A stretch of DNA of 64,000 nt from a virus: positions 1-64,000 of the IMG/VR virus record IMGVR_UViG_3300030329_003925, one strand, 5' to 3'. This document shows positions 22,854-53,666 of this stretch, one piece after another. The notes beneath the pieces are model-generated. The model ran no database searches. It was not told the DNA's origin and saw nothing but the letters and a program-made list of their open reading frames with translations. Position 1 is the first letter of the stretch. Each line of letters begins with the position of its first letter. The position numbers were made by a program, and so were the translations under genes.

Positions 22854-23309
22854 CTACTTTTCTATTTCTCTTATTGTGCCGCAAACATTTATAGGCTCTA
22901 TGGGTTCATAGTCGCTTATTTGGAAGTCATTTGACTCCATACTTTTCGCTTCTACAAGGGGGTTTGTAGCTATCGTAATATGAGGGTGGTTGGGACCCCT
23001 CATCGGAAGTGCAACGCCTTCTAGGTCCACTAGAGCGCTTGCTACGCGGTCGTTTAAAGCGATACCCACAACTTTGACGCATAAACCAGTCCCAAGCCAG
23101 CGAGAAGGTAGCCTTCTCTTCATTTCTGGAGGGCTGATGATGGTCATGTGGTGTGCAATGGGCGTCCAGCCCTCTGGGGCATACGGAACCAAGGCTCGGT
23201 GACCCAAATCGTTGAGGACAAGCCCTGTATACTCGATATGTTTAGCCATATCGGTCCCAAGGGAGATCTCGGACAGATGATCGCGCCAATTTTCAAGTAG
23301 GAGCTTCAT
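22854..23309 (-). CDS. Tagged 2H phosphoesterase (cyclic phosphodiesterase-like)
   Basis: MKLLLENWRDHLSE tag; two HxT motifs, HHMTI and HITIA. Confidence 0.8.
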   Translation of the reverse strand: MKLLLENWRDHLSEISLGTDMAKHIEYTGLVLNDLGHRALVPYAPEGWTPIAHHMTIISPPEMKRRLPSRWLGTGLCVKVVGIALNDRVASALVDLEGVALPMRGPNHPHITIATNPLVEAKSMESNDFQISDYEPIEPINVCGTIREIEK

Positions 23310-23695
23310 TCTACTCCTCCGAACATTCTCTTGAATATTTTGGGTGTATCTGGATTATCCAGATCTAAAATCTTTGCTTTTATCGTCTCAACCTTTTGGT
23401 TGATAGCCTTTTGTAGTCGATGGTTGCCGTCTAAGACATACTTAAACTCGCCACCTTTTCTTACAACTATGATAGGAAACTCTAAACTTGCTGCTTTAAC
23501 TCGCTCTTCACCGCGTGTTGGAAGAGGAGGTATCTGATTAGAAAGTTCTAAAACATTAAGATCAACTGTTTTATTACCCAAGAAGTCATCAATCTCACCG
23601 AGTGTGACCTTTTCTTCGTCGGTTTCCCACGATGTATCACGCCAACTTTTGTTTTCGTTGATAAACTTGTTCCAGTTTTCAAGTATGAGTTTCAT
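23306..23695 (-). CDS. Tagged ParB/sulfiredoxin-like domain protein
   Basis: MKLILENWNKFINE tag; FPIIV...VLDGNHRL. Confidence 0.75.
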   Translation of the reverse strand: MKLILENWNKFINENKSWRDTSWETDEEKVTLGEIDDFLGNKTVDLNVLELSNQIPPLPTRGEERVKAASLEFPIIVVRKGGEFKYVLDGNHRLQKAINQKVETIKAKILDLDNPDTPKIFKRMFGGVE

Positions 23696-24891
23696 TGCCC
23701 AATAAATCCTACGATATCGTTATAAGTATTGTCCAGTTGTCGATTATGGATGGCAGCAAGAACTTTTCTGAAAGCATCACCTATCTGTTGTCCTCGGAAT
23801 CCTAGTTCCATCATCTCTCTGCCGTTAATGTCGAGTTCCTTGGGAGAGAGAGGAAACTGTAATGCCTCTTCAATCTTGTCGGCTTGCTGAGTCATGCCAG
23901 CCTGCCGAAGAACACTAGCAATCAAGGGGAGTCTCCCTCGTTGTCCGCCCCCATACTCATAAACTTCTTTTGTATCCTCGGCTGCTTCCTGAGCAAGTTC
24001 AAGATATTGAACCATTTCGTTGGTGGGGCGCATCATATTGTGGTCGCCCCCTTCCAGAAAGAACGCAATGAAGTTGCCGAGTGTCTTGTCTTGGTTGTTG
24101 CCCCCGACCTCGATTGCGTAGGGATTAAAATCTTCTCCAAATATTGTTTTCCCGATTCCTGTCTCCTTCAAGAGCGAAACCAGTATATGGGCGTTGCCCG
24201 AGCCTTTCGTCCACGCCTTTGCAAGCTCCATAAACAGGCGTTCACCTGCAACCGACCCAATATCTCCCACATTTTTCTTGATGGCGTCTAAAGTTTCAGG
24301 CTCAATGGCGAAACCAAAGCGAGTGGCGAACTGAATAGCACGAAACATTCTCAAGGGATCTTCTTTAAATCTCTCATTAGGATCTCCCACGGTTCTGATA
24401 ATTTTATTTTTTAAGTCTTCCTGTCCTCCGAACAAATCTATGATATTGCCTTCGGAGTCTTTGGCGAGAGCATTGATGGTAAAGTCTCTTCTGCCCAAAT
24501 CAGACTCCACAGGAGCATTGGGATCTGTCTCCACATCAAACTCTGTGTGTTTCTCGCCCGTCTTTGTTTCGGAGGTTCTGGGAATGGCAAAGTCAAATTC
24601 CTCTCCATCAATTGTTGCAGTCACCACCCCAAATGCTTGCCCTACCTCTTTTACTTTTCCGAGAGGAGACAAAACAGAAACAATATCAGAGAGTGACAAG
24701 CCACGCACAAGGAAATCAACATCTTTGGATGGGGGAGTGTCAGGCAGGAGTTCATCTCGCACTGCTCCTCCTACAATATAACTTTCACCACCGCCCTGCT
24801 CTAGTGCTGCTTCAATCTTTTCAATTGTAGCTGGATCGACTGCTTCATTGAGTTTCACAAACTCTCGCCAATTTTCAAGTAGGAGTTTCAT
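23692..24891 (-). CDS. cca: Tagged tRNA nucleotidyltransferase (CCA-adding/poly(A) polymerase family)
   Basis: VGGAVRD, DVD, DLGRRDFTINALA, EDPLRMFRAIQF; start moved to MKLLLENWREF. Confidence 0.9.
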   Translation of the reverse strand: MKLLLENWREFVKLNEAVDPATIEKIEAALEQGGGESYIVGGAVRDELLPDTPPSKDVDFLVRGLSLSDIVSVLSPLGKVKEVGQAFGVVTATIDGEEFDFAIPRTSETKTGEKHTEFDVETDPNAPVESDLGRRDFTINALAKDSEGNIIDLFGGQEDLKNKIIRTVGDPNERFKEDPLRMFRAIQFATRFGFAIEPETLDAIKKNVGDIGSVAGERLFMELAKAWTKGSGNAHILVSLLKETGIGKTIFGEDFNPYAIEVGGNNQDKTLGNFIAFFLEGGDHNMMRPTNEMVQYLELAQEAAEDTKEVYEYGGGQRGRLPLIASVLRQAGMTQQADKIEEALQFPLSPKELDINGREMMELGFRGQQIGDAFRKVLAAIHNRQLDNTYNDIVGFIGQ

Positions 24892-24928
24892 ATTCTTAAT
24901 TAGTCTAGCCAGATGATAAGAGACGCAA

Positions 24929-24961
24929 TAAAAAAAGGGCAGCGCGTTATGCACTGCCCTT
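24929..24961 (-). terminator. Intrinsic terminator
   Basis: GGGCAG...CTGCCC hairpin followed by a T-run on the minus strand. Confidence 0.75.
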
Positions 24962-24982
24962 CGTTGCCCCCGGTTAAGGAGC

Positions 24983-25210
24983 CTACTTGTTCATGATGGT
25001 CATCAGCACCCAAAGGGCAACCAGACCAACGAGACCTTCGCTTCCAAGCTGAGCAGTAATGTCGATAACACTACCGACAACATCCAGAGGGAAGAACGGC
25101 ACACTTGCTCCGAAAAGCACCTGAAGCACAACAGCGAGGGCGAGCAGAGACACAGAAAAATCTGTGAGCCCCTTAACCCAAGTTCCGGCTGTTTGTAATC
25201 TTTCCAACAT
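24983..25210 (-). CDS. Small two-helix membrane protein
   Basis: Hydrophobic 75-aa ORF with AGGAGG RBS. Confidence 0.7.
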   Translation of the reverse strand: MLERLQTAGTWVKGLTDFSVSLLALAVVLQVLFGASVPFFPLDVVGSVIDITAQLGSEGLVGLVALWVLMTIMNK

Positions 25211-25329
25211 ATTATTTTCCTCCTTAACACATGAGTTTGTGTTGCCGGTAACTACCTCCCAGAAACTTCAAAAGCCCCACCGAGAGGACATTCACTATTC
25301 ATTCCAGATTACGCATTCTGCGTATTTTT

Positions 25330-26588
25330 TTACGCAGTCTGGGGCTTTCCGACCATGATCTTCATGTGTTTTTCGCCGCCAATGTCTCGGGTATACCATC
25401 CATTGTAGCCATCGTATTTGCCCTCTGGGTGAGGACCGATCCATTCGATCTCTTTTCCAAGAGTCTTGCGAACTGTTTCTTCGTCATTTACGGGAGGAAC
25501 GCCGTGATACTTAATCAGCACATGTGCTAGACCTTTGGAAACCTCGCCATAGAACCCATCATCAAACATCATTTCAGCGGTCTTGTTGATGTATCTCTTA
25601 ATAGCCTCTTGGGAACCATCGTGACCACCGGCACCCAATTTCTTGCCCTTATTGATGCGCAACACATCAGGCTTCGGGTCACCATCAATATCCAGTGCAA
25701 GATAATTGTCGTATTTGCCCGGTAGATCTTGAGCCTTCTGGAGTTTTATGTGCCCTCCGATGCTCTTGTAAGCAGTATTAATAAGATTGAATAGCTCTCC
25801 CGCTATGTTAACGTCGCCGCCTTGCTCCGTCGCCGCTTGACGTATATCTTCGACTGGCACGGTAAACCATTCATCCTTGGCAATCCCATAATCTTCCCAT
25901 TTTTTCTCTTGGAGACCATCTGGCTCCATATATGGATGGTCATCAAGATATTTTTTCATGCGAGGATCAACTTTTTCCTCTTTCATGAATTTGCGCCAGT
26001 TTTCGAATAGGAGTTTCATTTGTTCCCTCTTGGTGAATTCACCAGATCAATCCATGTCGTCAATGCGGTTATAGTCGGGATCATTTGCCAGCACATCAAG
26101 TGCTTCTTCTAAGCGTCTGATAACAAGGTGGGTCGTTCCCGGCTCGTCACCTCCATCTTGGAGCATCTGAATAGCGTCTTGGATATGGTATGCCACGGAA
26201 CCCTCTTCGGGTACGCCTTCATCGGTGCCCACAGTAAACGGTAGGTCAGTCTTAGAACCGGCGCCGCCTATTTTCGTGAAAGTAACGTTGGGGCGGTCGA
26301 ACAGGTCGTCTAGTTCTTCCTTGATGACTTGTTTCAGTTTTGCTTTTGTGATTTTCATTTCTTTGCCATCTCCATCTCAATGTCATCAGCCATCGTTCTA
26401 AGCACCCTTATAACATGTGCATCGCCGCGCAACTCCTGTAAATCAATCACCGCGTTGACGAGCTTGTCTCCGATTTCCGCGTCCACCTTCCAGTCATAGT
26501 CGCGTGTAGTGCCATCTGGGTATGGGAATTCGCCTTCTTCTAGCTCTTCCTTAATGATTTGTTTTAATTTTGCTTTTGTGATTTTCAT
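25330..26588 (-). CDS. Three tagged hypothetical proteins (26355-26588, 26047-26358, 25330-26019)
   Basis: MKITKAKLKQIIKEE, MKITKAKLKQVIKEE, MKLLFENWRKFMKEE. Confidence 0.7.
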
Positions 26589-26593
26589 AACGG

Positions 26594-27649: not shown

Positions 27650-27692
27650 GGGGAGGTCCTTTTGGAATAAATAGTCTCTTTTTGAGACAATA

Positions 27693-30331: not shown

Positions 30332-30343
30332 ATTCTATCTCCT

Positions 30344-33761: not shown

Positions 33762-35268
33762 TTACTCTATACAAAGCATCTCTGGATTGGAATAATAATC
33801 CACTTCGGTATCACCGAAACCCACTTCAAACCATTCTCCTCCACTCTCTCCCACCTTACATAAGGACGTAGCTGGAAGGGTTAGGACTGTCTTTCCTACA
33901 AGCATATACACCTCTACCCATTCAAACAATTCTTCTTGGCTTAACAGGATAGGGTTCTCTCTCTTCTCTGCTCCTAAGACTATACCTAACTCTCCTCTCT
34001 CACTGAAGTATATGAATGACTTGTGCTTTACCAAGTCTCCTCTCTTATACTCTGTTGGTATCTTTTTAATTTTCATGTCCTCGACCCTTTTCTGTTTTGG
34101 ATGAGATAACTTTATACTTCCTCTCTGCCACTTCCATCGGGAAACTAATTTGGTGTCCTCTGCCAACCCAAGGTGCAACCTTCTCAAAGAAGTGAATCAC
34201 AACCCAACCACCTTTCTTTACCTCTTGGACAATTCCATACGGTTGCCTATAGCCTAAGCCACGAACCAAGTCACCGACTTGCATTGAGCACCTTCAAATA
34301 ATGACGAGGTTCGGGATAGGGTTTTGGCATATCACTCCACTGTACCATTATTCGCCCATCAAGCGGATTGATGCCCACAATAATGCCAACACTCATCGTG
34401 CCGTATTCGGGCGATGTGGCTGGAGTACCTCTCACCAAGTCACCTACTTTCATCTTGTCACCTTTGTCCATGTGTCACCCAAAGAGAGCCATAACTGGTT
34501 CGGTGTCCCATACTCGATGAAGCGTTCGCCTCCTGCAAAGTTAGAAAGCACTTCAATCACGATGCTGAACCTGCCCGTGTTCTTGTTCCTTATGAGGTCG
34601 CCCACCTTGAATGAATATTTACTTTGTGCCTTCATTGACCTTCTCCAACTCTCTGGTGAGAAACATTAACTTTTCTCCCCTCACCAAAACATAACTGTGG
34701 TGCTTGCTGCTTTCGTACCCAAGGAATAAACCTAATTCCCCTGCGTAACTCCACTTGTGCGATACGGTGACGTGCGGGCACCTTACCAAGTCACCGACTT
34801 GCATTGACTACCTCCACTTTGCTATCTTTATATGGCACAGGTTGACCATGCAAGGTGACCCAACGCTGAACCCCATCGTGGCTCTCAAGGACATCAACCC
34901 GCATGACGAGATGCACCATACTGGTGCCTTTAATCTTTACCAAGTCACCTGCTTTCATCGGTTCTCCATCACGCCAAAGCAATAACCAACCAAGACGCCA
35001 AGCACACCAATGAGCAGGGGCACGGGAATTTGAATCATTTCAATCATTGTACTTTCTCCAAACAACTTTCTGAAACACTTCGAATCTCACCACCAAAGTT
35101 ACAAGTCCATCTTGCTACATGTGGTGGTGGAGAGAGATAGCGTTCGGGCGGATAGACATCCTCCTTGAGAACCAAACCCACCCTCTTTTGCCAGTCGAGG
35201 GTGAGGTCGGAAGTGATGGGCGAGATACGAACGAGGTCGCCCGCCTTGAGGTTACAAATGTCGCTCAT
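33762..35268 (-). CDS. Tandem array of seven KVGDLV (KOW/SH3-like) mini-proteins
   Basis: 33762-34076, 34066-34284, 34271-34453, 34450-34635, 34619-34804, 34791-34958 and 35044-35268 all have (K/Q)(V/A/R)GDL(V/I) near the start. Confidence 0.75.
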
Positions 35269-36629
35269 TTGTCCTCCACTGCGATGACCCGCTCGTTGGT
35301 CTTGAAGTAGGGATACGAGGCACCGTGACGGTCGGTCATCCAGATGCGTGGGCAACGTGACGACACAGGCTTAGGCGCGTACATGTCGGTCAGCACGATG
35401 TGACCGTCGAAGTTGCCATCGTTGACGAACTTGGTCGGTGCGTCGAAGTTGGTGCCACCGCAGCAGTAACGCTTCTTGTCGAAACGAGCACCCTTCTTCC
35501 AGACGTGGACACCATCTTCGAACACTTGGTCGTCGAAGGGGATGACCGTGAATTCCACAAACTTAGAAAGTTTGTTCAACTCGGCATAGAAGGCAGAGAG
35601 CATCGAGTCGGAGACGGACCCAGACTGGTCGATGCTGACCGCGAGGCGAGCGTAGCGTGTCACCTTGTTGCCACTGTGGATGAAGGGGTAACGCTTGTTG
35701 AGACGACGAACCGTGTTTCGCTTGTTCGCCTTGACGGTCGTGCGACAGAAGTAGCGAAGGACTGCTCGCCAGTCAACGGTCGTGCGGAGCATCTCTTTGA
35801 TGTCCTGCTTGGTGCGTGCGGAGCAAGTACCCCAAGAACCCGCCTTGTCTGCTTCCTCTGCTGCCTTGCGGATGTCTTCCTTCATGCGCTCGTTCGCAAT
35901 CTCGCGAGCCTGCTGGTCCTCGGCACCCTCGCCACCCCAACCGGAGTGGTCGTCGAAGGACTGACCCTGACCAGAACCACCGGACCCAGAACCTTCGCCC
36001 TCGCTCTCGCCCTGCTCACCGTTGTCGCCAGAACCAGAACCCTGACCCTCGCCATCCTCGTCGCCTTCGCCACCTTGACCCTCGCCCTCGCCTTCACCAG
36101 ACTCACTCGACTCGCCCTCGTCAGACTCGCCCTCTTCCTCCTCACGCTTCTTCTGAATCATTTTATAATATGCCTCGGCAGACAACCCAGCCTCAAAGTC
36201 AGCAAACGGACCCTCAGTCGGGAAGCAGCACTCTGGAGGCAGCATGTGGTCGCCATCGGCACCCATGAGGTCGCTGTTGATAGCGAGGTCGCCTGCGATG
36301 TTCCAGTCCATCGACATGCCATCGGAAGGCAGACGACCAGCAACGTGACCCAAGACGATGTGCATGAACTCATGAATGAGCGTGCCCTTGACCCAGCGGT
36401 AACGAGCAGCACCCTTGTCGCCCATCTCCTCGCGACGAGCGATGCACTCTTCGAACCACTTGGGGTTGTAGACCAACTCGTAACGAGCGGTGTCGGCATT
36501 GAGCTTCACGCCTGCGGTCGGGATGCTGGTGAGCACTCGCTTGTCCATCCGACGCGAGAGCGCAGCAAAGAAAGGCTCGTCGAGCAGGAGGCGAGCGGTG
36601 TGTTGATTGAGGTCAAAATTTGTGGTCAT
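35265..36629 (-). CDS. Metallopeptidase plus vWA-like protein (DUF2201-type MoxR partner)
   Basis: HEFMH, WNIAGDLAIN, acidic G/S/E linker, IDQSGSV, GGTNF, LTD. Confidence 0.9.
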   Translation of the reverse strand: MTTNFDLNQHTARLLLDEPFFAALSRRMDKRVLTSIPTAGVKLNADTARYELVYNPKWFEECIARREEMGDKGAARYRWVKGTLIHEFMHIVLGHVAGRLPSDGMSMDWNIAGDLAINSDLMGADGDHMLPPECCFPTEGPFADFEAGLSAEAYYKMIQKKREEEEGESDEGESSESGEGEGEGQGGEGDEDGEGQGSGSGDNGEQGESEGEGSGSGGSGQGQSFDDHSGWGGEGAEDQQAREIANERMKEDIRKAAEEADKAGSWGTCSARTKQDIKEMLRTTVDWRAVLRYFCRTTVKANKRNTVRRLNKRYPFIHSGNKVTRYARLAVSIDQSGSVSDSMLSAFYAELNKLSKFVEFTVIPFDDQVFEDGVHVWKKGARFDKKRYCCGGTNFDAPTKFVNDGNFDGHIVLTDMYAPKPVSSRCPRIWMTDRHGASYPYFKTNERVIAVEDK

Positions 36630-36702
36630 GAGAACTCCTTCTTACATATACAATGTATCACGCGAGGGGCAGAAAGTCCACCCCAAGCGTGTAAACATAA
36701 TG

Positions 36703-36855
36703 TCAGGAACCGACGAGAAACCCAATGGAAGCGTAGATACCGTAGCCTGCCAATGTCAAGGCAGGGAGCATGAGCATGAACGCCAGAGTCATCATCATCA
36801 CATCGGCATAGTCGATGTCGTGTCGTCGAACATAGTTAGTAATTGCAGAAAGCAT
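36703..36855 (-). CDS. Small membrane protein
   Basis: MLSAITNYV... with one TM helix, GAGG RBS. Confidence 0.5.
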   Translation of the reverse strand: MLSAITNYVRRHDIDYADVMMMTLAFMLMLPALTLAGYGIYASIGFLVGS

Positions 36856-36907
36856 AGAGCACCTCTTGGTTGTTGATGGGAAAAAAATTCCCGCGAGAAA
36901 CTTACAA

Positions 36908-36944
36908 ATAAAAGAAAGGCGAGGGGGCGCGATGCCCCCCCGCT
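36908..36944 (-). terminator. Intrinsic terminator after the AAA+ ATPase gene
   Basis: GCGGGGGGC-ATCGC-GCCCCCTCGC followed by CTTTCTTTT. Confidence 0.7.
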
Positions 36945-36949
36945 GCTGA

Positions 36950-38050
36950 CTACTCAAGCCCACCAGTCAGCATGATGGTCAGGTGGTCTGCGACAGACAC
37001 ACCACCCGATGAGGTCGCACCGTGGAGGTTCATGACATTCTCGTCACTGCACTCCTGACGACCCAGCACCTCCCACAACTTCATCGCAGGCTCGGAAGGC
37101 ATAGTTACAAAGTAGTCTGCGAGGTTCTGAACCTGCTCGGTCGTGAGCACTGCTTGGAACACCTCGGCAGCATCCATCTTGTCCACCAGAGCGACGTGCT
37201 CGATGACGCTGAAGTCTGCGGTCTTCTCGACCTTGCCGTGGGTCAGAACATCCTCGACAGTGACCTGACGGTCGTAGTTCTGGGCGAAGTCACGCAGAGC
37301 GACCGCACCTTCGAACCCGACGAACCCAGTCGCGAGGACAAAGAGAGGCTCAAGACCCTGACGAGGGTCTGCGAGCAGACCTGCGGTGGTCATCGTATCC
37401 GACAGACGCTTCCAAGACCGACGCGAAGGGTACACCTTGTTCGGCTCGTACTCACCAGTGTGCTCCAAGTGCCCACGGTTGCCGTTGATGAAGTCCCAGA
37501 CGAAGGAGTCCACGTTGTCCTTCGCCCATGCGAGCCAGTCCTCGACGGTAGGCTCGACATCGACAACCCACCAGCGGTCAAGTTCGGCAGGGTCCAACTC
37601 GCCAACCTGATACTGCGACCCGCACTCCTCGCCACCGTTGACAGCAGCGATAATCAGGGTTTGAGGATGAAGATGACGACCGTAAATCTTACGGGAGTCG
37701 GTCAATTCCATGATGCCCTGACGCACCTCTGGAGTCGCACGGTCCACCTCGTCCAAGAAGAGGACGACGGGGTTCTCGCACGCTTGGATGAGCCAGTCAG
37801 GGGCGTTCCAAGAAGTTACTTTATTGCCCTGCTCCGTCATCGTGGAGTCAGCATCGGGCATACCGATGAGGTCACCCTCGGTCATCTGTGAAGCACGACG
37901 CTCCACGACGGGGAGGTCGAGGTCGCGAGCGGTCTGGTAGACCACCTCGGACTTGCCCACACCGTGACGACCGCGAAGCATCACGGGGAGCTTCTGCGCG
38001 AGGACGTGGGGAGCGATGGAAGTGAAGGTCTTGAAGTCGATTGTTGCCAT
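36950..38050 (-). CDS. MoxR-like AAA+ ATPase
   Basis: GRHGVGKS, LFLDEVDRA, AAVN, LDPAELDR, PSRRSW. Confidence 0.92.
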   Translation of the reverse strand: MATIDFKTFTSIAPHVLAQKLPVMLRGRHGVGKSEVVYQTARDLDLPVVERRASQMTEGDLIGMPDADSTMTEQGNKVTSWNAPDWLIQACENPVVLFLDEVDRATPEVRQGIMELTDSRKIYGRHLHPQTLIIAAVNGGEECGSQYQVGELDPAELDRWWVVDVEPTVEDWLAWAKDNVDSFVWDFINGNRGHLEHTGEYEPNKVYPSRRSWKRLSDTMTTAGLLADPRQGLEPLFVLATGFVGFEGAVALRDFAQNYDRQVTVEDVLTHGKVEKTADFSVIEHVALVDKMDAAEVFQAVLTTEQVQNLADYFVTMPSEPAMKLWEVLGRQECSDENVMNLHGATSSGGVSVADHLTIMLTGGLE

Positions 38051-40888: not shown

Positions 40889-40894
40889 TATACC

Positions 40895-41343: not shown

Positions 41344-41419
41344 TGGTGGGTTGTATAGGATTCGAACCTATGACCATCGGATTAAAAGTCCGGTGCTCTA
41401 CCAACTGAGCTAACAACCC
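41344..41419 (-). tRNA. tRNA-Lys(UUU), CCA encoded
   Basis: GGGTTGTTAGCTCAGTTGGTAGAGCA-CCGGA-CT-TTT-AA-TCCGA...GGTTCGAATCC...CCCACCA. Confidence 0.95.
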
Positions 41420-41420
41420 T

Positions 41421-41735
41421 TTACTCTCCGAACCACCGTTTTGTCTTGTCAAAATTAAGATTGACTGTGACCTTTCCGGTGGGCGACTTAGGGTTCCAGA
41501 CCCAGAATCTCTTCTTCTTGGTTCCAAATTGCCATAGCCCGTTGGGGCACGGACCACTCAAGCCATTCCTTCTCGCTTCCCCCCGTGACTTGAACACCCC
41601 TGCTTCTGCTGCCATCACCGCGAGGTCGTCACTGTCTACTGATACAATATCTTCTGTCCCATCCAAGGGACCAAAGATACATTCCATATCACCAAAAGAC
41701 ATGCTCCGGTCTGGGTTGACGACAAAATGCTTCAT
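41421..41735 (-). CDS. Small protein with S4-like (TyrRS C-terminal-like) motif
   Basis: AEAGVFKSRGEARRNG...GTKKKRF. Confidence 0.5.
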   Translation of the reverse strand: MKHFVVNPDRSMSFGDMECIFGPLDGTEDIVSVDSDDLAVMAAEAGVFKSRGEARRNGLSGPCPNGLWQFGTKKKRFWVWNPKSPTGKVTVNLNFDKTKRWFGE

Positions 41736-41807
41736 GGTCCGTGCCCCCTTCCCCTCTAATGTATCACGTTTTGTGTCCCTGTCAAGGGACAAATTGTAAG
41801 AGACTTG

Positions 41808-42235
41808 TTAAGGCTCGCACGCTTCCATGAAGGTCTGCGTCTTGAACCTTGGGTTCTCTTCCTTGAACCAGACGGCAAAAGAAAGTGCCGTGGCTCGTCG
41901 AACCTGCGGGTCTTGAATCTTAGAAATAATCTGTGCTGTTCTCTTGAAGTGCTTTCTGGTCATTGGATTCTCCTTTGTTAGTCTTGTAGGGTTCTCGCTT
42001 CGATTTTCATAAACTCGGTCCAGCCTGCCATCACATGCCAATTCTCCACAATCTTGTCCCACGCCTCCGTGTCACCGATATGCGGTGCGTCGTGGCTCCA
42101 GCCTTCATAGAATTCCTTGGCAATCTCGCGAAGATGGGACTTAGCCCCTTCAAGTGTCCGAAAGACGGACAGTTCTTCGCCATGCTTGTGTTGATAGACA
42201 GCGATACAAACAGTAAGTTCTTGTGGTTCTGCCAT
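41808..42235 (-). CDS. Two small hypothetical early proteins (41978-42235, 41808-41963)
   Basis: RBS-preceded starts MAEPQEL and MTRKHF. Confidence 0.6.
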
Positions 42236-42268
42236 GTCATGCTCCCAGTGAAAAGTTACAAATTAAAA

Positions 42269-42373
42269 GGTTGCGGTTTTGGGATTCGAACCCTCTCCTG
42301 ACAGGTCTGGGTCGCACACCCTTTCCCTGACGGTTCCCTACCTGACTGCTGTGCGGCAGCGGGAAACCCGCAT
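42269..42373 (-). ncRNA. Candidate tRNA-like ncRNA C (about 105 nt)
   Basis: TGCGG/CCGCA end pairing, GGG-TTCGAAT-CCC T-arm near the 3' end, non-canonical interior. Confidence 0.5.
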
Positions 42374-42385
42374 AAGTTATTGGTC

Positions 42386-43069
42386 TTATTCTGATTCGTA
42401 GCCATCAAACCATCGACCCATGTGTTCAGTCCTTGCGACTGCTTTCCGCGAGGTCGCCGTGCTTGATGATGTTTCTGGGTCACGACAATGTGCTTGCGCC
42501 TCTTCCAGCGTTAGACCACGCTTAATTATTCGATTCTCACACCAATCGTTTTCGAACATTCTTACAATACGGTACATTTTCTCTCTATACTTCGGCATAT
42601 TACAAATCTTGGCAATCTCCATGTCTCGCTCATAGTAAGAGTTCAGCCCGTTCAGCGGAGCGCCCGTGCCGTCGTTGAGACGCACACTACACATGCCACC
42701 CCCGTCTGCCGCTATAACGATACCCAATTTGCCCTCGACACCCCACCGCTGGCTACGCTTGTTGTTCTTGAAGCGCACAAGGGTGCCAACCTTGAATTTG
42801 GGGGGAGGTGGCTTGACTGAATGAATCATCTGCGTGGGGTTGTCCACGAAGTACCCAGCAAAGTAGTCAGTATGCGGGTCGCTCTCGTCGTCAATGCGAC
42901 GGATATGATACCCCGTTGCTTCAGCTTCTTCTCCTCCGATACCATTCGCACTCCATGACAGGATGCGGTCGTCATACTCAACCCAGTAGTGACTGTAGCG
43001 GTCTGGTGGATGATTGACCTTCACTCCAAGAGCCTTTTCAACTTTCTTGTTTACTGCTTTGACTTTCAT
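42386..43069 (-). CDS. Hypothetical protein with an internal KOW-like domain, apparent fusion
   Basis: FKVGTLVRFK; distinct C-terminal module GLTLEEAQAHCRDPETSS. Confidence 0.65.
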   Translation of the reverse strand: MKVKAVNKKVEKALGVKVNHPPDRYSHYWVEYDDRILSWSANGIGGEEAEATGYHIRRIDDESDPHTDYFAGYFVDNPTQMIHSVKPPPPKFKVGTLVRFKNNKRSQRWGVEGKLGIVIAADGGGMCSVRLNDGTGAPLNGLNSYYERDMEIAKICNMPKYREKMYRIVRMFENDWCENRIIKRGLTLEEAQAHCRDPETSSSTATSRKAVARTEHMGRWFDGYESE

Positions 43070-43394
43070 GTCATCGCCTCCAATTCAAAGTTACAAATTA
43101 AGCCTCGGCAGGCGCACTCATCGCCCACCAGATAAGAACGTCGATAGCAGACAAGCGATTGCCCAACTTCTCGTTACTAATCCACTCGGTCAGCACGCTT
43201 GCCATGTAAGCATAGTGAGCAAGTTCTTCTTCAAAGTTCTGGTCCAAATTAACACTCAACATTCTGTCCTCCATCGTCCGTAAAGGCGTGTGGCGGGATA
43301 AGTTCATCGGGATAGCCATCGGGATAGGTTTCTGGAAAGAAAAAATCCTCTAACTCTTCTTCGGTATAGTATTCAAATCCGTCGTTGGGGTTCA

Positions 43395-43736
43395 TTATTG
43401 CGCCCTCTTCTCATGACTTTCGGACAATAGTGTCTCGACCCAGCCTCCATCAAACTCTGCGATGTACTTGTCGTGAAGAACAAGCATCTTGTCACCGTTC
43501 TTTTCGATGTTCTTCAGCTTGTAGCCAGCAATAATAAACTCTGTCCCAGTGGGTGCTCCGATGAATGTTTCGCAGACCGCATAGGGCACAGACTTCCACG
43601 CCTTGCCATTCGGGTTACGAGCCATATCCCTTGCGCTCTTACGAAACCTGCGCCACCGAATGTCAACCACCCGTGCTTGGATAGATTCGCTGCCATGCTT
43701 GATGAGCACGATGTCGTGCTTATTTAGATACGCCAT
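43395..43736 (-). CDS. Hypothetical protein
   Basis: 113-aa ORF, GAGG RBS. Confidence 0.65.
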   Translation of the reverse strand: MAYLNKHDIVLIKHGSESIQARVVDIRWRRFRKSARDMARNPNGKAWKSVPYAVCETFIGAPTGTEFIIAGYKLKNIEKNGDKMLVLHDKYIAEFDGGWVETLLSESHEKRAQ

Positions 43737-44160
43737 TCTTCACCTCGCGTGTCTTAGTGTTGAACTTGTTGGCGAGGAAGTTCGCAGTGCCACGGTTGTG
43801 ACATCGCTCTTTCTTGCCATTGGGATAAAGAACATAGTGAGTGTTCTTCAAGTGGATTGTTGTAGCTTTCGTCATGTTCTTTCTCCTTCTTACCCCTATA
43901 ATGTAGCATACCTAATCGCGTTTGTCCAGCAATAAATTGTCAAGAGAATGTCAAACGGAAGGTTTTTTCGCAACGACCAGTTGCCTCTCTTGGACAATCG
44001 AGGTTGTTCCCCTCATATCGCCCTTCGTCCACCGAACAGTCCAGCAGGAATGAATCGGAGCGCGACTTGCGATGTAGCCAAGAGTTCCCTTAGAACCACG
44101 TTTTTGAACCATATTACCAATGTGCATTAGACACCTCTCTCTGATTGTTGAATTAAAAAG

Positions 44161-44234
44161 TGGGCTTTCTCGGACTCGAACCGAGGACATTCCGTGTATG
44201 AGACGGGTGCTCTGACCAACTGAGCTAAAAGCCC
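44161..44234 (-). tRNA. tRNA with CAU anticodon (probably Ile2; Met not excluded), CCA not encoded
   Basis: GGGCTTTTAGCTCAGTTGGTCAGAGCA-CCCGT-CT-CAT-AC-ACGGA...GGTTCGAGTCC. Confidence 0.88.
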
Positions 44235-44243
44235 GTTACTAAC

Positions 44244-46062
44244 TTACTTTCCAGCGTTGAAAGCGTCGGATAAGTCTCCGACGTACTGGTATGCTCCTTT
44301 GTTATAGGCTGGAGCCACGCACTTGCGCCGTCTGTTTGCTTCTCGGTGTGCTGCTCTGTCGCCGCAGTCAAGGCAGGTATAGAACCCCAGCGCAAGACGT
44401 TTGTCGTTGTAGTCCTCGTAGCAAAGTTTACAAATTGCCATCTCTCACCTCAAATAACATAATTTCCATAGCCATGTTCGCCTGCACAATTGCGAGAGCA
44501 ATACCCGTGGTAAAGAATATACTCTGGGTCTTTTTCCTCGCGCCAACGGGAAAGTGACTTCCCACAGTTAGTACACCGCTTAAACTTGCCATACGGCATC
44601 AGGAGAAGCCCGTCTTCATCTGACTCATAATATACCCTCTTCCAGTTACTCATCGAACTGCCGCATAAAAATAGGGGTGTGCTCGCCATGCCATGCGCTC
44701 ACCACGTTATACTCCATCCACTCGATAGTCCCTTCGTAGTCCCAGTCGTTATCCCTCATGAATATTTCCACGCACTTGTCATAGTTATAAATTGCCACCG
44801 GCATCTTCGTAGCCTGTAAGCCCCAACCGATAAGTGCATCGTCAAGACCATCTGCCAATAATGCCTGTGGATTGAGTGCTGCCAACTCTTCTCTAATACT
44901 AACCACGCCTCACCTCCTCTCTCGTCTCGACAAACTTTCCATCCTCGTCCACCAGAGTTTCAACCTTGATGGTGGTGGTGTGAACAGTTAGAATTTGAAA
45001 ATTGGAACGGGGAACCAAGTGCTCCTTGTCTCCTCGGCGTAGGTGCCACCCTTCTTCATCTACGAAGTCGCCTTTGGCAACCATGATGTCTGACCCGCGA
45101 GGATAGCGCAAAGATGAATAGCCCGTGACTATATTTAGAGGCACCTTAGCCCGTAGAATTTGCTTCATACAGTCACCACCTCTAACTCATGGTCCCATAT
45201 CTCGTAATCAAAGCCAGACACCCTGCACAAGTAGTCTCGCGTATCATCTGGATTCATCAGCCTCATGCTGGTGACAACGCCCAGCCGAACGCCTTTCGTA
45301 GTATACCCGCTAAACTTTACTAAGTCACCGACTTTCATGTAGTTCCTCACTTCCAGAACGCAAGTAGGGAATACCCACGGGTAGTTCGCCGCTGACAATG
45401 CCTCTGTGTTTGGCACAAATAATTGTAATAACATGGGCTGGAACCCAACCATAGACAGTCATACAAGGCTTGTCTGGGTCTTCTGCGTAGGGTAACAAGA
45501 GTTCCTCGACTAAGCTGGGATACCCTACCTCCGCGTGAGTGTAAGCGTCGGCACCATCCACGCGAGGAGTGCAGTACGCCCCCTCATTTGCCTGCACCGA
45601 CATCTCAAAGCCATCCGCACACTGAATTTTTCTATTGAGCTTTACCATGCTCCCCCCTTAGTAGTCGATTTCCGTCCGTGTGTAAATTTCAAAACCGTCG
45701 CCTCTGGTTACGATGTCTTCTGAATCTTCTCCGACGCGAACAAAGCGATAATACTCGTCGCCCATGACGGTTCTCGTATAATCCCCACCCCCTGCCGGAC
45801 TGGGCACTGTGACTGACTCCACCTCCATGCCATCACACTCGTCCATGAAGTCGTTGAGGCAGTCAATCTCTGGGTATCCCTCGTACCACTTGATGCTGCA
45901 CCAGCGGAAAAGAAAGTTCCCGCTCTCTTGATAGTTCTCAATCACCTCGTCAGCTTCAGCGAAGCAGAGATTCTTTGTGCCACCCTCCTGACTGATATGA
46001 GCCATGAACTTGCCCATAAGTTTCTTGTCAACAGCCAAAATTACGTCAGAACGATAACCCAT
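44244..46062 (-). CDS. Operon of seven small early proteins
   Basis: 45658-46062 (MGYRSDV), 45325-45648, 45165-45338 (KVGDLV), 44899-45168, 44646-44906, 44450-44653, 44244-44441 (CxxC...CxxC). Confidence 0.7.
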
Positions 46063-46154
46063 GTTTTCACCTCTCGTTGATTACAATAACAATGTATCAC
46101 GTTTTAAGAATTTGTCCAGTCCTAAGTTGTCAAGAGAATGTCAAGGAGAAGAAA

Positions 46155-46236
46155 TACCAGAGACGGGATTCGAACCCGTAAGCCTAAAGGCGTCAGATTT
46201 TAAGTCTGATGTGTATACCGATTCCACCACTCTGGC
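46155..46236 (-). tRNA. tRNA-Leu(UAA), CCA not encoded
   Basis: GCCAGAGTGGTGGAATCGGTATACACA-TCAGA-CT-TAA-AA-TCTGA, long variable arm, GGTTCGAATCC. Confidence 0.93.
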
Positions 46237-46248
46237 AAAAGTTACAAA

Positions 46249-47569: not shown

Positions 47570-47659
47570 ATTTGTGAACAAAACCTCCCGCTTACACACA
47601 CAATGTATCATGGGTATTGCCACCTGTCAAGCCCGTGGGTGTCAACGAATTGTCAAGAA

Positions 47660-48607
47660 CTATTGGTGTGCCATTGACATCTGCGAATCATAAGAGTCAA
47701 TGCGGAGTTTCGACAAACGCTCAAGATAATCATTTCGTCGGAGAACCTTGAAAGCTAAGTTTTCGAAGGAGTATTCGCCTTCGCGCTCTAAGCCACTGGA
47801 TCGGAATCTTTTTATCTTCTCCCTCACCTTCTCGCCATACTCCATCGCGCCATCGTAATCGCCCTCGTCAAACAACTTCTGCACGTCGTCGATCATATCC
47901 ATCGTCGAAGCTGCTTTCTGCTTGACTGCTTCTCGGTCAATCTCTTTGTCTTCGCGTCGAGGTTTGACCACCCAGTCGTCGTTAAGCAAGGAATAAACAC
48001 CACTTGAAAAGTGAGCATCGTTTACGTCTTGGACGTAAAGTTCCACGTCGTAACCCTTCACCTTGATGTCGTGCTGCCTGTTCCAGTTAGACTTGGTTTG
48101 CATGAACAAGTCTCGGACCAATTCTTCATTCTCGTCAACGTCCTGATAATCCAAGATGATGTGAACGTCAAGGTCGGAGAACTTCGACCAATTATAATTT
48201 GCCAGCGAGCCTGTCAGCGTGATGTCTTTTATCTCGGCTTTAACTCCCAGCTTCTCGTAGAAGTCTTGGGCAATTTGTAAAAGTCGATCACGGATTGCTG
48301 GGTCTATTTTGTCGTCGGAGTTCCAGACTTTTCGGTCGAGGGTTTCGTGAACCACAAAGCTGGACAGATCGACGCTATCGGGGTCTGCCCCTTCTTCGAA
48401 TCGTAACCTGTCTGTGCCAAACCTCTTGACCTTGCCCGTGAAGGGTGGTCCCGACTTCTTATTTTTAATACCACCTTGGGTCGTGTAGATGTCGTTTTTT
48501 CGGCGTAGCTTCTTGTATCTCTTTTGAGCCGCACTCTTGAAAGGGGTTGGTTCTGCCGCCTCGTGCAAAGTTACAAAGTCATTCCAAAATGTTTCGAAGT
48601 CCTTCAT
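47660..48607 (-). CDS. Tagged pol-beta-superfamily nucleotidyltransferase
   Basis: MKDFETFWNDFVTLHE; TGSLANYNWSKFSDLDVH, VELYVQD. Confidence 0.8.
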   Translation of the reverse strand: MKDFETFWNDFVTLHEAAEPTPFKSAAQKRYKKLRRKNDIYTTQGGIKNKKSGPPFTGKVKRFGTDRLRFEEGADPDSVDLSSFVVHETLDRKVWNSDDKIDPAIRDRLLQIAQDFYEKLGVKAEIKDITLTGSLANYNWSKFSDLDVHIILDYQDVDENEELVRDLFMQTKSNWNRQHDIKVKGYDVELYVQDVNDAHFSSGVYSLLNDDWVVKPRREDKEIDREAVKQKAASTMDMIDDVQKLFDEGDYDGAMEYGEKVREKIKRFRSSGLEREGEYSFENLAFKVLRRNDYLERLSKLRIDSYDSQMSMAHQ

Positions 48608-48616
48608 GGCTGCACC

Positions 48617-49949: not shown

Positions 49950-49976
49950 GGGGGGTGTCTCCTCACAATAAATAGT

Positions 49977-50273: not shown

Positions 50274-50997
50274 GTTGTTTCTCCAATTCTTTCCTAATAA
50301 GTAGTTCCGTCATTTGCCAATTTTCGACTTGGCAGGCGGTATCTCCTGCTTTTAAGGCTCTCGCGGCTGGGAAGTCATTACCATTCGGTCCCATCTTGTC
50401 GCCCATGAATACAATTGGCAAACCATGAATCTCGCGCACCATGTTAACTGCTTGAGACTTATCTTTGCCCTTGGGATAAATGTCAATACTTATTTCTCCT
50501 CCGATGGAAACATCCACGTTTCTAAACTCTTTGGGCTGCGCCAGAATTGTGATGGCAATACTCATACGCTCACGCTTGCGCTCATCCCACTCATGGTATC
50601 TGGCTCGTTCTTCCAGCGTAGCGTTTCGCCCCACAACGGAGAAGTTTAACATTCCCGGTCGGTGCTCAAAATGCTTCCCCGTCTTGAGAGGGAAGTCCGA
50701 CTCCTCCACGCAGCGTTCGAGAAAAGTTACTAATTGCGGGTGAGGCTGAAATTCATGGCTATAAACCCTCTTGCCCCTTTCCCAGAATTCATTTCCAGAG
50801 CAGGCGAAAACTCCTTGGCACATCGTCAGGACACGCTTGTCTACCTGTTCTCTCGCCTTCTCGATGTCGCTCCCTGTTGCCAAATACACGATGTTTTCCT
50901 TGGCGAATGGGAGAAAAAACTCCGCGAAGTTCTCATCCATCTTTTGACGTGGCGGCGTGAGTGTACCGTCGATGTCAAACAAATATACTTTACTCAT
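50257..50997 (-). CDS. HAD-IIB phosphomannomutase-like enzyme (eukaryotic PMM type)
   Basis: FDIDGTLTPPR, GSD, RPGMLNFSVVGR, IGGEISIDIYPKGKDK, GDKM..GND. Confidence 0.9.
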   Translation of the reverse strand: MSKVYLFDIDGTLTPPRQKMDENFAEFFLPFAKENIVYLATGSDIEKAREQVDKRVLTMCQGVFACSGNEFWERGKRVYSHEFQPHPQLVTFLERCVEESDFPLKTGKHFEHRPGMLNFSVVGRNATLEERARYHEWDERKRERMSIAITILAQPKEFRNVDVSIGGEISIDIYPKGKDKSQAVNMVREIHGLPIVFMGDKMGPNGNDFPAARALKAGDTACQVENWQMTELLIRKELEKQHGEKE

Positions 50998-51187
50998 CTA
51001 AGCCTCTGCGGTTGGTGTTAATCCCTCTAAGATGACCTCCGACAAATTCTCCATCATGGCTTTGTCTGCATCTTTTATCTCCTCAAGCATGAACCAGAGT
51101 GCTTCGTTTTCATCCTTGAGTCTTTCTATTTCTTCTTCTGCTTCTTTCAATTGCTGGAGCAGTACGTCGTGCTGTGGGCAGGTCATT

Positions 51188-52194
51188 TTACCACTCCTTG
51201 CAGGACCAGTAGCCTGCTGTGAGTTTATCTTTTTTGTCATCGCAGTTATGACGCGCACGGAAATTGGACTTTCTGTCTGGATCATCGCTCTTGTCTTCCA
51301 AGTTGGCATCGCCAAACCGAACAATACTCTCTTTGCCGTCCTGACAGCCTTTAACAACCTTTTGCTTCTTTCCGTATCCCGGCTCTCCTTTGCGAATGTA
51401 GCGGGGACTATTGCATTTCATCCGGTCCTTGTCGGTCCCCTCTGCTTCTTCAAGGGACTCTTCCTTGGTAGCTTTTTTCCATGACTTTTCGTCTGGATAG
51501 TCCTTGTCCCCCGGCTTTGCAGGGGCTTCGCCACGCGCTCTTTTGGCACGGATATTCTGAAACAGATTAGAACCTTCAGCGAGTGCCTCGATTTCTTCCC
51601 TTATGAGGGATTCAAGAAATTCACGTTTCATGGTCAAGCACTCTTCTTAGCCTGAGCAGTGGCAATCGCCATCTTCTTGTCCATTGGCATATCAGGATTG
51701 TCTTTCTCCATAGCCTTGGCAATCTCTTCTCGTTTGTCTTCTTCTGCGTCGGTCAGCTTTCTTTCCGCAAGTTCGTCTTGATCAACAAGGTGGTCGTACT
51801 CACCGCGTTCCCACTTCTGGTCTTCGATCCATTCCTCGTCAACAAAGCCTTGACTGACTTTCGACATGGCAGCTTCAGCAGCAACACCAAGCTCACGAAC
51901 CATCGCCATAGCCTCTTTGCCAGAGATACCTCCGGTGATAGCCATGTTCCCAAGAGCCGCAAGGAAGCCATCAAGGTTGTCAACCTCGCCCGTGGGAAGC
52001 CTGATGTTTCCACCAGTCAATATGGAATCGAACAACTCCTCCGTCACGTCTGTGGTCCACTGGTCCATCATGCGTTCTTGGTCGGTCATCTCGCTTCCGT
52101 AATTAGGAGAGAGGTCTGTTAGCTCATAAGCCTCAAGCACCTTTGCTGCCTCTTCTTTGATGATTTGTCTAATTTCTTTGGTTGTGATTTTCAT
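51188..52194 (-). CDS. Two tagged hypothetical proteins (51634-52194, 51188-51637)
   Basis: MKITTKEIRQIIKEE; MKREFLESLIREE...FRARHNC...YWSC; late motif at 52218-52225. Confidence 0.7.
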
Positions 52195-52227
52195 TCCGAA
52201 TCCTCCGGGGATATTTATAAATAGTAT

Positions 52228-52881
52228 TCATTCCGCCCCAAAACCCAATTCTTTTAACTCTGCGATAGCCGAGGCTGAATCTCCAAAGGCACACCGAATG
52301 GCGATACCTCCATGCTCTGCCCAAGGAATCAAGTTCTTGTCCCAATCGTCGATCAAGATGTTGGGTCTTCCATCTGTGGTTGCCCACTTCCACTTATCGT
52401 GGCTCATGTAAATCTTGGTTGGCTGCGGGTTTAGGTGACTGCTTATCCATGCTCGTTTGCCCTCCTGTGACCCTTCGTCCATCGGAGAAGTGAGGATGTA
52501 AGGGCTATAGGGCGAGATAAAACTCCACAATTCCTGACCTCCCGGCATCTCTGGGAGTTCTGACCAGAACCTAACATCGTCACCAAAATTCTTATACATG
52601 TAGTTGCGAACTGCTTTACTGTTACTTCCACCGCCCTTTCTCAAGTCCGTCACATCAATTTGTAACTCTCGATCAGCGGCGACCAGAGCTTTACGCACCC
52701 TTCCTATGTTTGTAATTCCCCCCGTAGGCTTGCGGTCGGGCTTAGAGTCGTCGAGGAGTTCAATGTTAATCTGATCGACGACCCCCTTTTCAAAGTCCAC
52801 AAGGACGCCATCCATGTCGCAATAGATTTGCGGCAACCGATTTTGCTCCTCGTTGAGAAAATTTAACCAACCCTTATACAT
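52228..52881 (-). CDS. Tagged HAD 5'(3')-nucleotidase-like phosphatase
   Basis: MYKGWLNFLNEE; YCDMDGVL, ILTSP, ILIDD. Confidence 0.85.
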   Translation of the reverse strand: MYKGWLNFLNEEQNRLPQIYCDMDGVLVDFEKGVVDQINIELLDDSKPDRKPTGGITNIGRVRKALVAADRELQIDVTDLRKGGGSNSKAVRNYMYKNFGDDVRFWSELPEMPGGQELWSFISPYSPYILTSPMDEGSQEGKRAWISSHLNPQPTKIYMSHDKWKWATTDGRPNILIDDWDKNLIPWAEHGGIAIRCAFGDSASAIAELKELGFGAE

Positions 52882-53666
52882 TATAACTGCCTCAAGCTCC
52901 GTGGGATATATCTCATCACGATGCAACCGGGGATTTCTCGACTGTTAATGGTCGGAATAAGAATCTGCTTGACGTAGGTTTGCCCCGTCATGGCTTCTTT
53001 AGCTGGGTGAAATTTCACCCGAATAGTCGAGACGATCCCCCCTCCGCTCTTTTGGGATTGGAGGGAGGATACTATTGTCACGCCGGGAATTGAGCGAATG
53101 TCAGCCAAGGTATCGTCAATTCCAGCTTGCCTCTGAATCTTGATGACAAGCTCGGCTTCAAACACTCTTAGCTTCTCTTCTTCAGCCTCGTTAAGAAGGT
53201 CGTACAATTCCTCATCATCGTAGTAATCGTCTTCGCTTTCCAGCTTGTCCGTTACCGATGCTTCAGATTCTATCTCGACGATAGCGTGGGGGGGTACATC
53301 ACCAACGAGATAATATGCGTCGAAGTCGGGTAGCTCCATATCGTCGTGAACTTCTGGTGTAGGCTTCATCTTAGCGATATTAACCTTTACAAATACAAAG
53401 GGAGGCTGTGCGCCTCCAAATATACCAGAGTCAGGACGAGAAAACGCAGCCATAAAAGCAGAGTCTTGCGAAGAAAAAAGATAAACTCTCTTCTCTTTGG
53501 CATCCTCTTCGCTGTATGAATAATCACGGTCACCGGCTTGAGAGGAACCACGAATACCGTGGGCTTTAATACCCTCTTCGTTTTCCGCACCAGTTACATG
53601 ATAGTACATTCTTGGCTTTTGATATTGAGCCTCTTCCCTAAACTTCTGCCAACCTTCTAAAATCAT
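52881..53666 (-). CDS. Tagged ADP-ribosyltransferase-fold protein (Tpt1/KptA-like) plus a second C-terminal module
   Basis: MILEGWQKFREE; YHVT..ENEEGIKAHGIR, VYL, GDVPPHAI. Confidence 0.55.
   Translation of the reverse strand: MILEGWQKFREEAQYQKPRMYYHVTGAENEEGIKAHGIRGSSQAGDRDYSYSEEDAKEKRVYLFSSQDSAFMAAFSRPDSGIFGGAQPPFVFVKVNIAKMKPTPEVHDDMELPDFDAYYLVGDVPPHAIVEIESEASVTDKLESEDDYYDDEELYDLLNEAEEEKLRVFEAELVIKIQRQAGIDDTLADIRSIPGVTIVSSLQSQKSGGGIVSTIRVKFHPAKEAMTGQTYVKQILIPTINSREIPGCIVMRYIPRSLRQL

Follow-up and report, generated by a model that had tools for sequence, protein, structure and literature searches.

Capsid-targeting sequences (CTSs) of T4 are N-terminal propeptides of 10–20 residues that the prohead protease removes by cutting after a glutamate, and the internal proteins that carry them are diverse defence proteins against host restriction enzymes with only the CTS in common (PMC5694885, PMC3012670). 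RNA-repair sets of jumbo phages, comprising Rnl1/Rnl2/RtcB, polynucleotide kinase (PNK), 2H, HAD, KptA, RlaP, Pol-beta nucleotidyltransferases (NTases) and a CCA-adding enzyme, have likewise been described, and their proposed role is to counter tRNA-cleaving defences (Iyer et al. 2021, PMC7824862). The DNA analysed here, called the window, comprises the first 64 kb of a linear IMG/VR virus record (IMGVR_UViG_3300030329_003925; 77,219 bp in total, the contig; CheckV completeness 43%) and represents part of an uncultured marine phage with head assembly of the T4 type. It encodes a predicted CCA-adding enzyme, 2H phosphoesterase and HAD phosphatase, each starting with a short peptide tag. Phage RNA-repair sets and the targeting tags of T4 are thus known already; a tag of the head-targeting type on such enzymes is new.

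Phage tRNA repair, whether by T4 Pnkp and Rnl1 or by the jumbo-phage sets, is thought to become active only once phage genes are expressed; what is known of the packaged internal proteins of T4 concerns mainly the inhibition of restriction enzymes and the ADP-ribosyltransferase (ART) Alt. In the CCA-adding enzyme of E. coli, an HD domain clears tRNA ends of 2',3'-cyclic phosphate (Yakunin 2004, as cited in PMC6961547). An earlier note on this DNA had proposed that the tagged proteins amount to a tRNA healing, sealing and CCA-restoring kit. The healing and CCA-restoring parts of that proposal found support, with 2H, HAD and CCA genes linked by an operon, by adjacency in relatives and by a CCA–HAD gene fusion, while the sealing part and the part assigned to Tpt1 did not hold as proposed.

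A head-targeting-type tag on unrelated proteins

At least 12 proteins of the window start with an amphipathic peptide of 14–16 residues, the end of which is always (L/I)-x-E. Tag A, M-K-L-L-[LF]-E-N-W-[RN]-x-F-[LI]-x-E, was found in strict form in nine open reading frames (ORFs), all on the minus (coding) strand and none on the plus strand. A stricter version of the motif was present in seven of the nine, every time at residue 5 and with no internal copies. A looser tag A stands at the start of three ORFs, those of the putative Pol-beta NTase (47660..48607), the ART-fold protein (52881..53666) and the HAD phosphatase (52228..52881). A second peptide, tag B (MKITKxxLKQxIKEEL), begins at least seven further ORFs. 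Codons within tag A differ synonymously between copies, so that conservation acts on the peptide rather than on the DNA; a DNA- or mRNA-level element was ruled out on this ground.

The tag was also followed across homologues of the 2H protein. In an alignment of 15 sequences, E14 of the tag was invariant and L12 nearly so. Tag B replaces tag A in one 2H homologue, and another clade has a third variant, MNLLREYIxELLxE. In 504 other phage records the homologues of the CCA enzyme lack the tag, since their alignment starts only near residue 30. A literature search with the tag strings returned only irrelevant matches.

A 605-aa fusion protein from a JGI metagenome (P0124) carries one tag A at its N-terminus and another inside the chain (..VAESDMKHLFENWRKYINE..), right before its 2H domain. 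It resembles a cargo protein of two modules that can be cleaved apart.

In length, N-terminal position, (L/I)-x-E end and occurrence on unrelated proteins, the phage tags correspond to T4 CTSs. No head protease was found in the contig, an absence that is uninformative because the contig is a 43% fragment. A gp21-type protease (PF03420, E = 2e-25 to 3e-31) was present in three of four larger relatives, including the 100%-complete record of 205.5 kb, G001. The gene order of one larger relative, G003, read along the coding strand, is at least nine consecutive tag-A genes, two small genes, the large terminase subunit (TerL, 3.7e-55), the portal (1e-70), three small genes, the head maturation protease (PHROG, 2.5e-56) and a tag-B gene. 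Its tag-A array includes homologues of the putative Pol-beta NTase (NT315), the 2H esterase and the CCA enzyme. This layout, together with the protease in relatives, is good circumstantial support for a predicted head-loading tag, and by analogy the tag most likely works like a T4 CTS. Docked by its tag into the core of the prohead, the protein would be cut behind the glutamate by a gp21-type head protease, and the phage would deliver the matured enzyme together with its DNA.

The tag-B gene of G003 (L060:964-1404) encodes a 146-aa protein (MKITEKQLNQIIQEEI) and directly follows the gene for the head maturation protease, which is where T4 has its scaffold gene. Tag B may imitate the N-terminus of a core or scaffold protein.

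The main rival explanation is plain maintenance of the phage's own tRNAs. The CCA, 2H and HAD enzymes would then be made after infection to mature or maintain phage tRNAs and transfer-messenger RNA (tmRNA), the tag would serve folding, localisation, a cytoplasmic complex or stability, and nothing would be injected. The contig does contain a tmRNA gene and five tRNA genes (Arg-tct, Ile-tat, Lys-ttt, Met-cat and Leu-taa; 362-1773 and 41344-46237). The tRNA-Leu(taa) gene lacks an encoded CCA and tRNA-Met(cat) is ambiguous, probably lacking it too; these two genes speak for maintenance, as do the untagged CCA enzymes of the 504 records, which typically come from large tRNA-rich phages, and the place of the CCA enzyme among the common RNA-repair genes of jumbo phages (PMC7824862). 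Nevertheless, CCA is encoded in the other four tRNA and tmRNA genes, that is, by most phage tRNA genes here. Maintenance also does not account for a tag that ends with the motif at which the head protease of the lineage cuts, for the swapping of tag classes on one and the same domain, or for tagged arrays that abut terminase, portal and protease genes. Taken together, this explanation was considered rather unlikely.

The 2H, HAD and CCA proteins

The genes for the CCA enzyme, a ParB-like protein and the 2H protein lie on the minus strand and are joined by ATGA stop/start overlaps; the ART and HAD genes, also on the minus strand, share a TAATG overlap. The coordinates and couplings given in the earlier note were reproduced for both gene groups. 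Its domain calls for the operon held for the CCA enzyme (Pfam, 1.9e-22) and for the 2H protein (two invariant HxT motifs) and were weak for the ParB/Srx-like protein (PHROG, 5.7e-4).

The 399-aa tag-A protein encoded at 23692..24891 matched Pfam PolyA_pol (1.9e-22) and PolyA_pol_RNAbd (2e-9) and the PHROG tRNA nucleotidyltransferase (2e-61). Among NCBIfam models, CCA was the best class II model (1.1e-50, versus 1.1e-36 for PcnB), with all scores below the equivalog cut-offs. The NCBIfam alignment covers the head and neck of the E. coli multifunctional enzyme only and contains no HD domain. The motifs GGAVRD..DVD, RRD and EDPLR were read from the translation, and on these family matches and motifs the prediction of a class II CCA-adding enzyme is confirmed.

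The 151-aa tag-A protein encoded at 22854..23309 possesses the motifs HHMTI (H53-H54-M-T56) and HITIA (H110-I-T112), both invariant in the 15 aligned sequences. PF08302 (tRNA_lig_CPD) was matched by 11 of the 15 family members, with a best E-value of 3.1e-7. Distant relatives in large phage contigs are fusions of about 317 aa that join an AAA_33 P-loop kinase to the cyclic phosphodiesterase (CPD) domain (PF08302, 4e-6), and an Rnl1-type RNA ligase lies within three genes of the kinase–CPD gene in 9 of 19 loci. These fusions and ligases place the 2H clade in RNA-end healing and argue against an Acb1-like degradation of signal molecules. The motifs confirm the prediction of a 2H esterase, and the matches of its family make a place in the tRNA-ligase CPD clade probable. 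A phmmer search of PDB sequences with the 2H protein and a search of PDB with the 2H family profile gave no match.

Within three genes of the kinase–CPD gene, these 19 loci (L016-L050) hold 12 NUDIX matches, nine Rnl1 ligases, three ART-PolyVal proteins and two NADAR proteins. They form a split Trl1-like repair neighbourhood, in which the tags are absent.

The HAD phosphatase encoded at 52228..52881 is loosely tagged and NT5C-like. It matched phrog_2643, a 5'-3' deoxyribonucleotidase (2.4e-21), and contains the motif CDMDGVLVDF (DxDxV); one relative matched NT5C (6.7e-6). The motif and the match to phrog_2643 confirm the predicted HAD phosphatase, as the earlier note had called it.

The three genes are linked in several ways. 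In four loci of relatives (L004-7), the 2H gene is directly upstream of the CCA gene. The HAD homologue adjoins the 2H gene, or is one small gene away from it, in L003, L009-11 and L015, and the ART–HAD pair was kept in L062 and L063. In one further locus (L014:9637-11517), a single ORF of 626 aa fuses the CCA-adding enzyme with the HAD homologue (31% identity over 229 residues). This fusion begins with a third tag type (MNILYAYIREAMTLEE).

The simplest pathway consistent with these linkages would need no kinase and no ligase. The 2H esterase would open the 2',3'-cyclic phosphate left by a metal-independent tRNase, the HAD phosphatase would take off the remaining phosphate, and the HD-less CCA-adding enzyme would rebuild the CCA tail. 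Its substrate would be tRNA 3' ends, perhaps also those of tmRNA. The 2H and HAD proteins would thereby supply in trans what the HD domain gives to the E. coli CCA enzyme. A capsid-targeted, mixed cargo that includes this tRNA 3'-end heal-and-CCA line is the favoured explanation and was given an even chance of being right. The gene identities, the tag with its properties, the linkages and fusion of the genes and the protease of relatives are observed, whereas packaging, clipping, injection, the RNA substrate and the sequence of steps are inferred. The ART, the Pol-beta NTase, the ParB-like protein and the ligase/NMNAT protein may act as helpers and would not be needed for the pathway.

Several observations weigh against this explanation. 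The best family match of the HAD protein is a deoxyribonucleotidase, which taken by itself suggests nucleotide metabolism, and the ART–HAD pair sits among GroEL and small-heat-shock genes rather than head genes. The 2H protein of the window itself scored below the cut-off of PF08302 (E = 0.026; 14.4 bits versus 23 bits). Operon composition differs between relatives, and the complete relative G001 has homologues of 2H, HAD and NT315 and lacks the CCA enzyme. Moreover, tagged genes cluster regardless of function, so adjacency is weak evidence for a common pathway; among the linkages only the CCA–HAD fusion is strong.

In a second rival, the tagged proteins are a mixed take-over and anti-defence cargo without a common tRNA pathway. 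The 2H protein would break down cyclic-nucleotide signals of host immunity in the manner of Acb1, the HAD protein would be a dNMP nucleotidase serving the nucleotide pool, and the ART would modify a host protein or nucleic acid as does T4 Alt, which is a packaged ART. The deoxyribonucleotidase match of the HAD protein fits this proposal, as does an ART that lacks the RNA lobe of Tpt1 and groups with Arr, HYD1, PARP and DarT-type ARTs. The array composition shuffles between relatives, and eight other tagged proteins have no family match; 2H enzymes have also been proposed as counter-signal enzymes (PMC7824862). The proposal is at odds with the 2H family, which is recognised by the tRNA-ligase CPD model and shares homology with the CPD half of the kinase–CPD proteins found beside Rnl1 ligases. 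It is further at odds with the union of CCA and HAD in one ORF of L014 and with the translational overlap of the 2H and CCA genes in the window and in L004-7. A cargo of this kind was judged improbable.

The eight proteins are relevant beyond this proposal. They gave no family match, or sub-threshold repeat matches only, which indicates that the tagged cargo is broader than RNA repair. Most tagged proteins are without an assignable function, and the idea that the cargo adds up to one kit was abandoned.

If head loading and the heal-and-CCA line are combined, a marine T4-like lineage would load the 2H, HAD and CCA proteins and inject them with the DNA, countering tRNA-cleaving abortive-infection nucleases before phage gene expression. 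Accessory cargo may include a minimal ART that uses NAD, a Pol-beta NTase and, in some of the relatives, a kinase with a tag. This extended proposal is doubtful, and its claim that injection would precede translation is conjecture.

The tagged, putative ADP-ribosyltransferase

The earlier note had called the protein encoded at 52881..53666 (minus strand) Tpt1/ART-like. The ART fold was borne out and the relation to Tpt1 was not. As modelled with AF2 (pLDDT 68), the loosely tagged protein has two domains, a minimal ART fold of the H-Y-E type followed by a ferredoxin-like domain. The best Foldseek match of the N-terminal domain was Tpt1/KptA (3.4e-5), and comparison by VIA gave a Z of 9.8 to the NAD lobe of KptA only (the C-lobe, chain residues 86-180). 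DarT, TreX and cholera-type toxins followed 1–2.5 Z units behind. The neighbours of the protein in the ESM-atlas were Arr, Tox-ART-HYD1 and PARP. In the family alignment H23, Y62 and D109 are invariant and E111 is nearly so. The model and these comparisons confirm the predicted H-Y-E-type ART fold of the N-terminal domain.

The Tpt1 model PF01885 had no match at E ≤ 1 in the contig, with control genomes matched, and none in five relatives. The N-terminal RNA-binding lobe of Tpt1, which carries three of the four catalytic residues (Arg-His-Arg of the tetrad), was not seen in the modelled protein, where the tag alone precedes the ART domain. With no PF01885 match and only the NAD lobe represented, the protein is probably a minimal H-Y-E ART, and its membership in the Tpt1 family was rejected. 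A phmmer search of PDB sequences with the ART protein gave no match.

The ferredoxin-like C-terminal domain best matched the B8 anticodon-binding domain of PheRS-beta (Z 10.0), and this fold is very common. The domain also ends a 680-aa protein of G001 that is encoded upstream of the HAD gene (8e-10). Its possible recurrence before the 2H domain of P0125 was dropped, as the pairwise E-value of 0.37 was not significant.

The ligase-fold protein and the kinase question

An RNA-ligase-like domain had been noted in a protein of 1156 aa (3182..6652, minus strand), and at the level of the fold this was right. The protein consists of an N-domain, the predicted RNA-ligase-fold domain (4373-5455) and an NMNAT-like nucleotidyltransferase domain with a HIGH motif. 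The ligase region (residues 400–760) has 75 homologues. The AF2 model of the domain (pLDDT 91.9) gave RNA ligases as all top 16 Foldseek matches, led by T4 Rnl2 (3.6e-6) and followed by REL1, Trl1-LIG and NgrRnl. VIA placed NgrRnl at Z 10.7 and Rnl2 at Z 10.2, down to 9.9 for REL1, and ligases or capping enzymes occupy ranks 1–35, 37–42 and 45 of the top 45. In motif I the family consensus EKxDG reads EKMDS in the window protein (Gly to Ser); EGVVLK and EVKG are present. Distant homologues of the domain match PF09414 (RNA_ligase), best at 2.6e-9. By structural modelling the RNA-ligase fold of 4373-5455 is confirmed.

The HIGH domain matched CTP_transf_like (3e-4), a PHROG cytidyltransferase (6e-17) and NMNAT-type proteins. 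It consistently follows the ligase domain, and CTP_transf_like was matched in five of five homologues examined (1074–1612 aa; family of 75). The leader of the window protein, MTNLQQTLFSLVKDLLSE|GG, ends in LSE|GG and is not tag A. Short leaders such as MxxILLE|GGNA were observed ahead of the N-domain in homologues of the ligase protein.

Direct searches with or for the ligase gave null results. The RNA_ligase model had no match in the contig, and the RNA_lig_T4_1 model had none in five relatives, a result made uninformative by the control genomes, which had no match either. A phmmer search of PDB sequences with the 1156-aa protein and a search for related loci with the ligase domain alone were without match. 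The complete relative G001 has no homologue of the protein.

The earlier note had seen no PNK in the window, and this holds for the contig, as judged by the AAA_33 model, a custom hidden Markov model (HMM) of the kinase–CPD fusions and a scan for Walker A motifs. No P-loop kinase was detected, the sole Walker A protein of the contig being a MoxR ATPase. A heal-and-seal route is incomplete in the contig because it lacks a PNK. The kinase–CPD HMM was also without match in G001. A tagged PNK, suggested as a target beyond the window, was absent from the rest of the contig, and a tagged AAA_33 kinase was found in the relative G004.

The G004 protein (L076:1258-2157) is an AAA_33 P-loop kinase (E = 2.3e-6) in which peptides resembling tags B and C stand before the Walker A motif; G004 also encodes tagged 2H, HAD and CCA proteins. 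The ParB/Srx-like protein was considered as the missing kinase and dropped: nothing spoke for or against it, and it has no homologue in the fetched 2H-bearing loci.

A third rival is the full kit of the earlier note, in which an injected 2H protein and an unseen kinase would heal the ends of anticodon-cleaved tRNA in the fungal manner, the ligase domain would seal them, a Tpt1-like ART would clean the junction, the CCA would be restored and an inorganic pyrophosphatase (PPase) would pull the reactions forward. The CPD clade of the 2H protein, the RNA-ligase fold with its motif I lysine and the NAD lobe of Tpt1 as best structural match of the ART agree with it, as do the tagged kinase of G004 and the phage tRNA-Lys(ttt), a classic PrrC target. 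On the other side, there is no kinase in the contig and no kinase–CPD type in the complete relative G001. PF01885 is unmatched in six records and the ART has no RNA lobe. In every case the ligase comes joined to an NMNAT-like domain; it bears no tag A and has no homologue in G001. The PPase call is no more than a lead. The full kit was regarded as very improbable.

Other tagged proteins and neighbouring genes

A tagged Pol-beta NTase had been proposed at 47660..48607 (minus strand, 315 aa, NT315). Its loose tag was found again; the family call is weak, with matches to NTP_transf_2 (8.2e-4) and Polbeta (2.5e-3) that are both below cut-off and a match to phrog_36119 of unknown function (4e-45). 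Homologues lie one gene from the 2H gene in L002 and L004-7. RlaP (PF10127) had no match in the contig at E ≤ 10, and the putative Pol-beta NTase is not RlaP.

The tag-A protein of 142 aa encoded at 13316..13744 (minus strand) had been called PPase-like. It had no Pfam, PHROG or NCBIfam match, and PF00719 and PF18823 were unmatched in the contig at E ≤ 10. Pyrophosphatase was annotated in 23% of the members among its ESM-atlas neighbours (score 0.87) and InPase in 22%, so the PPase call did not hold up beyond a language-model lead.

The remaining member of the CCA operon, a tag-A protein of 129 aa (23306..23695, minus strand), matched phrog_17560 of unknown function (3.3e-12) and the ParB-like phrog_723 (5.7e-4) and contains a DGNHR motif, which make a weak case for a ParB/Srx-like protein. 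No homologue was present in any fetched 2H-bearing locus of relatives.

All genes of the contig are on the minus strand. They encode GroEL/GroES, a type II glutamine synthetase, a DnaE-type polymerase, ThyX and ribonucleotide reductase, and protein homologues of window genes come from marine metagenomes. A blastn search of phage records with the CCA–ParB–2H operon gave no match, and no cultured phage was similar at the DNA level; a tblastn search of phage records with a tagged 310-aa protein was likewise without match.

Three further loci were recorded. The 304-aa protein encoded at 57903-58817 matches the Mom protein family (Pfam, 9.9e-10), which suggests a function in DNA base modification. 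A TadE-like pseudopilin ORF (438-854) adjoins the tRNA/tmRNA cluster at the contig end. The MoxR-type AAA+ ATPase and its partner protein (35265-38050) are kept as a pair in G001, with 62% and 50% identity; the partner may, by the look of its sequence, be of the VWA/metalloprotease type.

Comparison with known systems

Were the favoured explanation and its extension to injection correct, RNA-repair enzymes would for the first time be seen as anti-defence cargo delivered by the virion. Repair enzymes that are loaded and injected could blunt tRNA-targeting defences from the first second of infection, and the tag would offer a natural, modular means of addressing enzymes to capsids. The trio of 2H, HAD and CCA proteins would be a counterpart, acting in trans, of the CCA-HD repair enzyme of E. 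coli and can be tested in vitro.

Like the multifunctional CCA enzyme of E. coli, the predicted line would repair tRNA 3' ends by combining CCA addition with phosphatase and 2',3'-cyclic phosphodiesterase activities. It differs in that end healing would come from separate 2H and HAD proteins and the HD domain is missing; the HAD protein is fused to the CCA enzyme only in L014.

With the phage repair sets, including T4 Pnkp and Rnl1, the locus shares a 2H protein, a HAD phosphatase, a CCA enzyme, an ATP-dependent RNA-ligase fold and a putative Pol-beta NTase. Unlike those sets, it has tags of the head-targeting type, no kinase in the contig, a ligase fold fused to an NMNAT-like domain and no bona fide KptA or RlaP.

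The 2H protein probably belongs to the same Pfam family as the CPD of fungal and plant Trl1 (ligase–kinase–CPD), which works with Tpt1, and its distant phage relatives resemble Trl1 in being kinase–CPD fusions beside Rnl1-type ligases. In contrast to Trl1, the 2H protein stands alone with a tag in the place of the kinase, and the ART is not of the Tpt1 family.

The closest parallel for the tag itself is the T4 CTS of IPI-III and Alt, processed by gp21 (Mullaney & Black 1996; PMC3012670, PMC5694885). Both systems have an N-terminal peptide with a (L/I)-x-Glu end on unrelated proteins, a protease of the gp21 family (here in relatives of the phage) and cargo genes that are diverse and swappable. 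The predicted targeting tag of this phage differs in sequence, in being longer (14–16 aa) and in having an ENW core. Furthermore, at least two to three tag classes occur here, with a dozen or more cargo proteins per genome, and RNA-end enzymes are among the predicted cargo.

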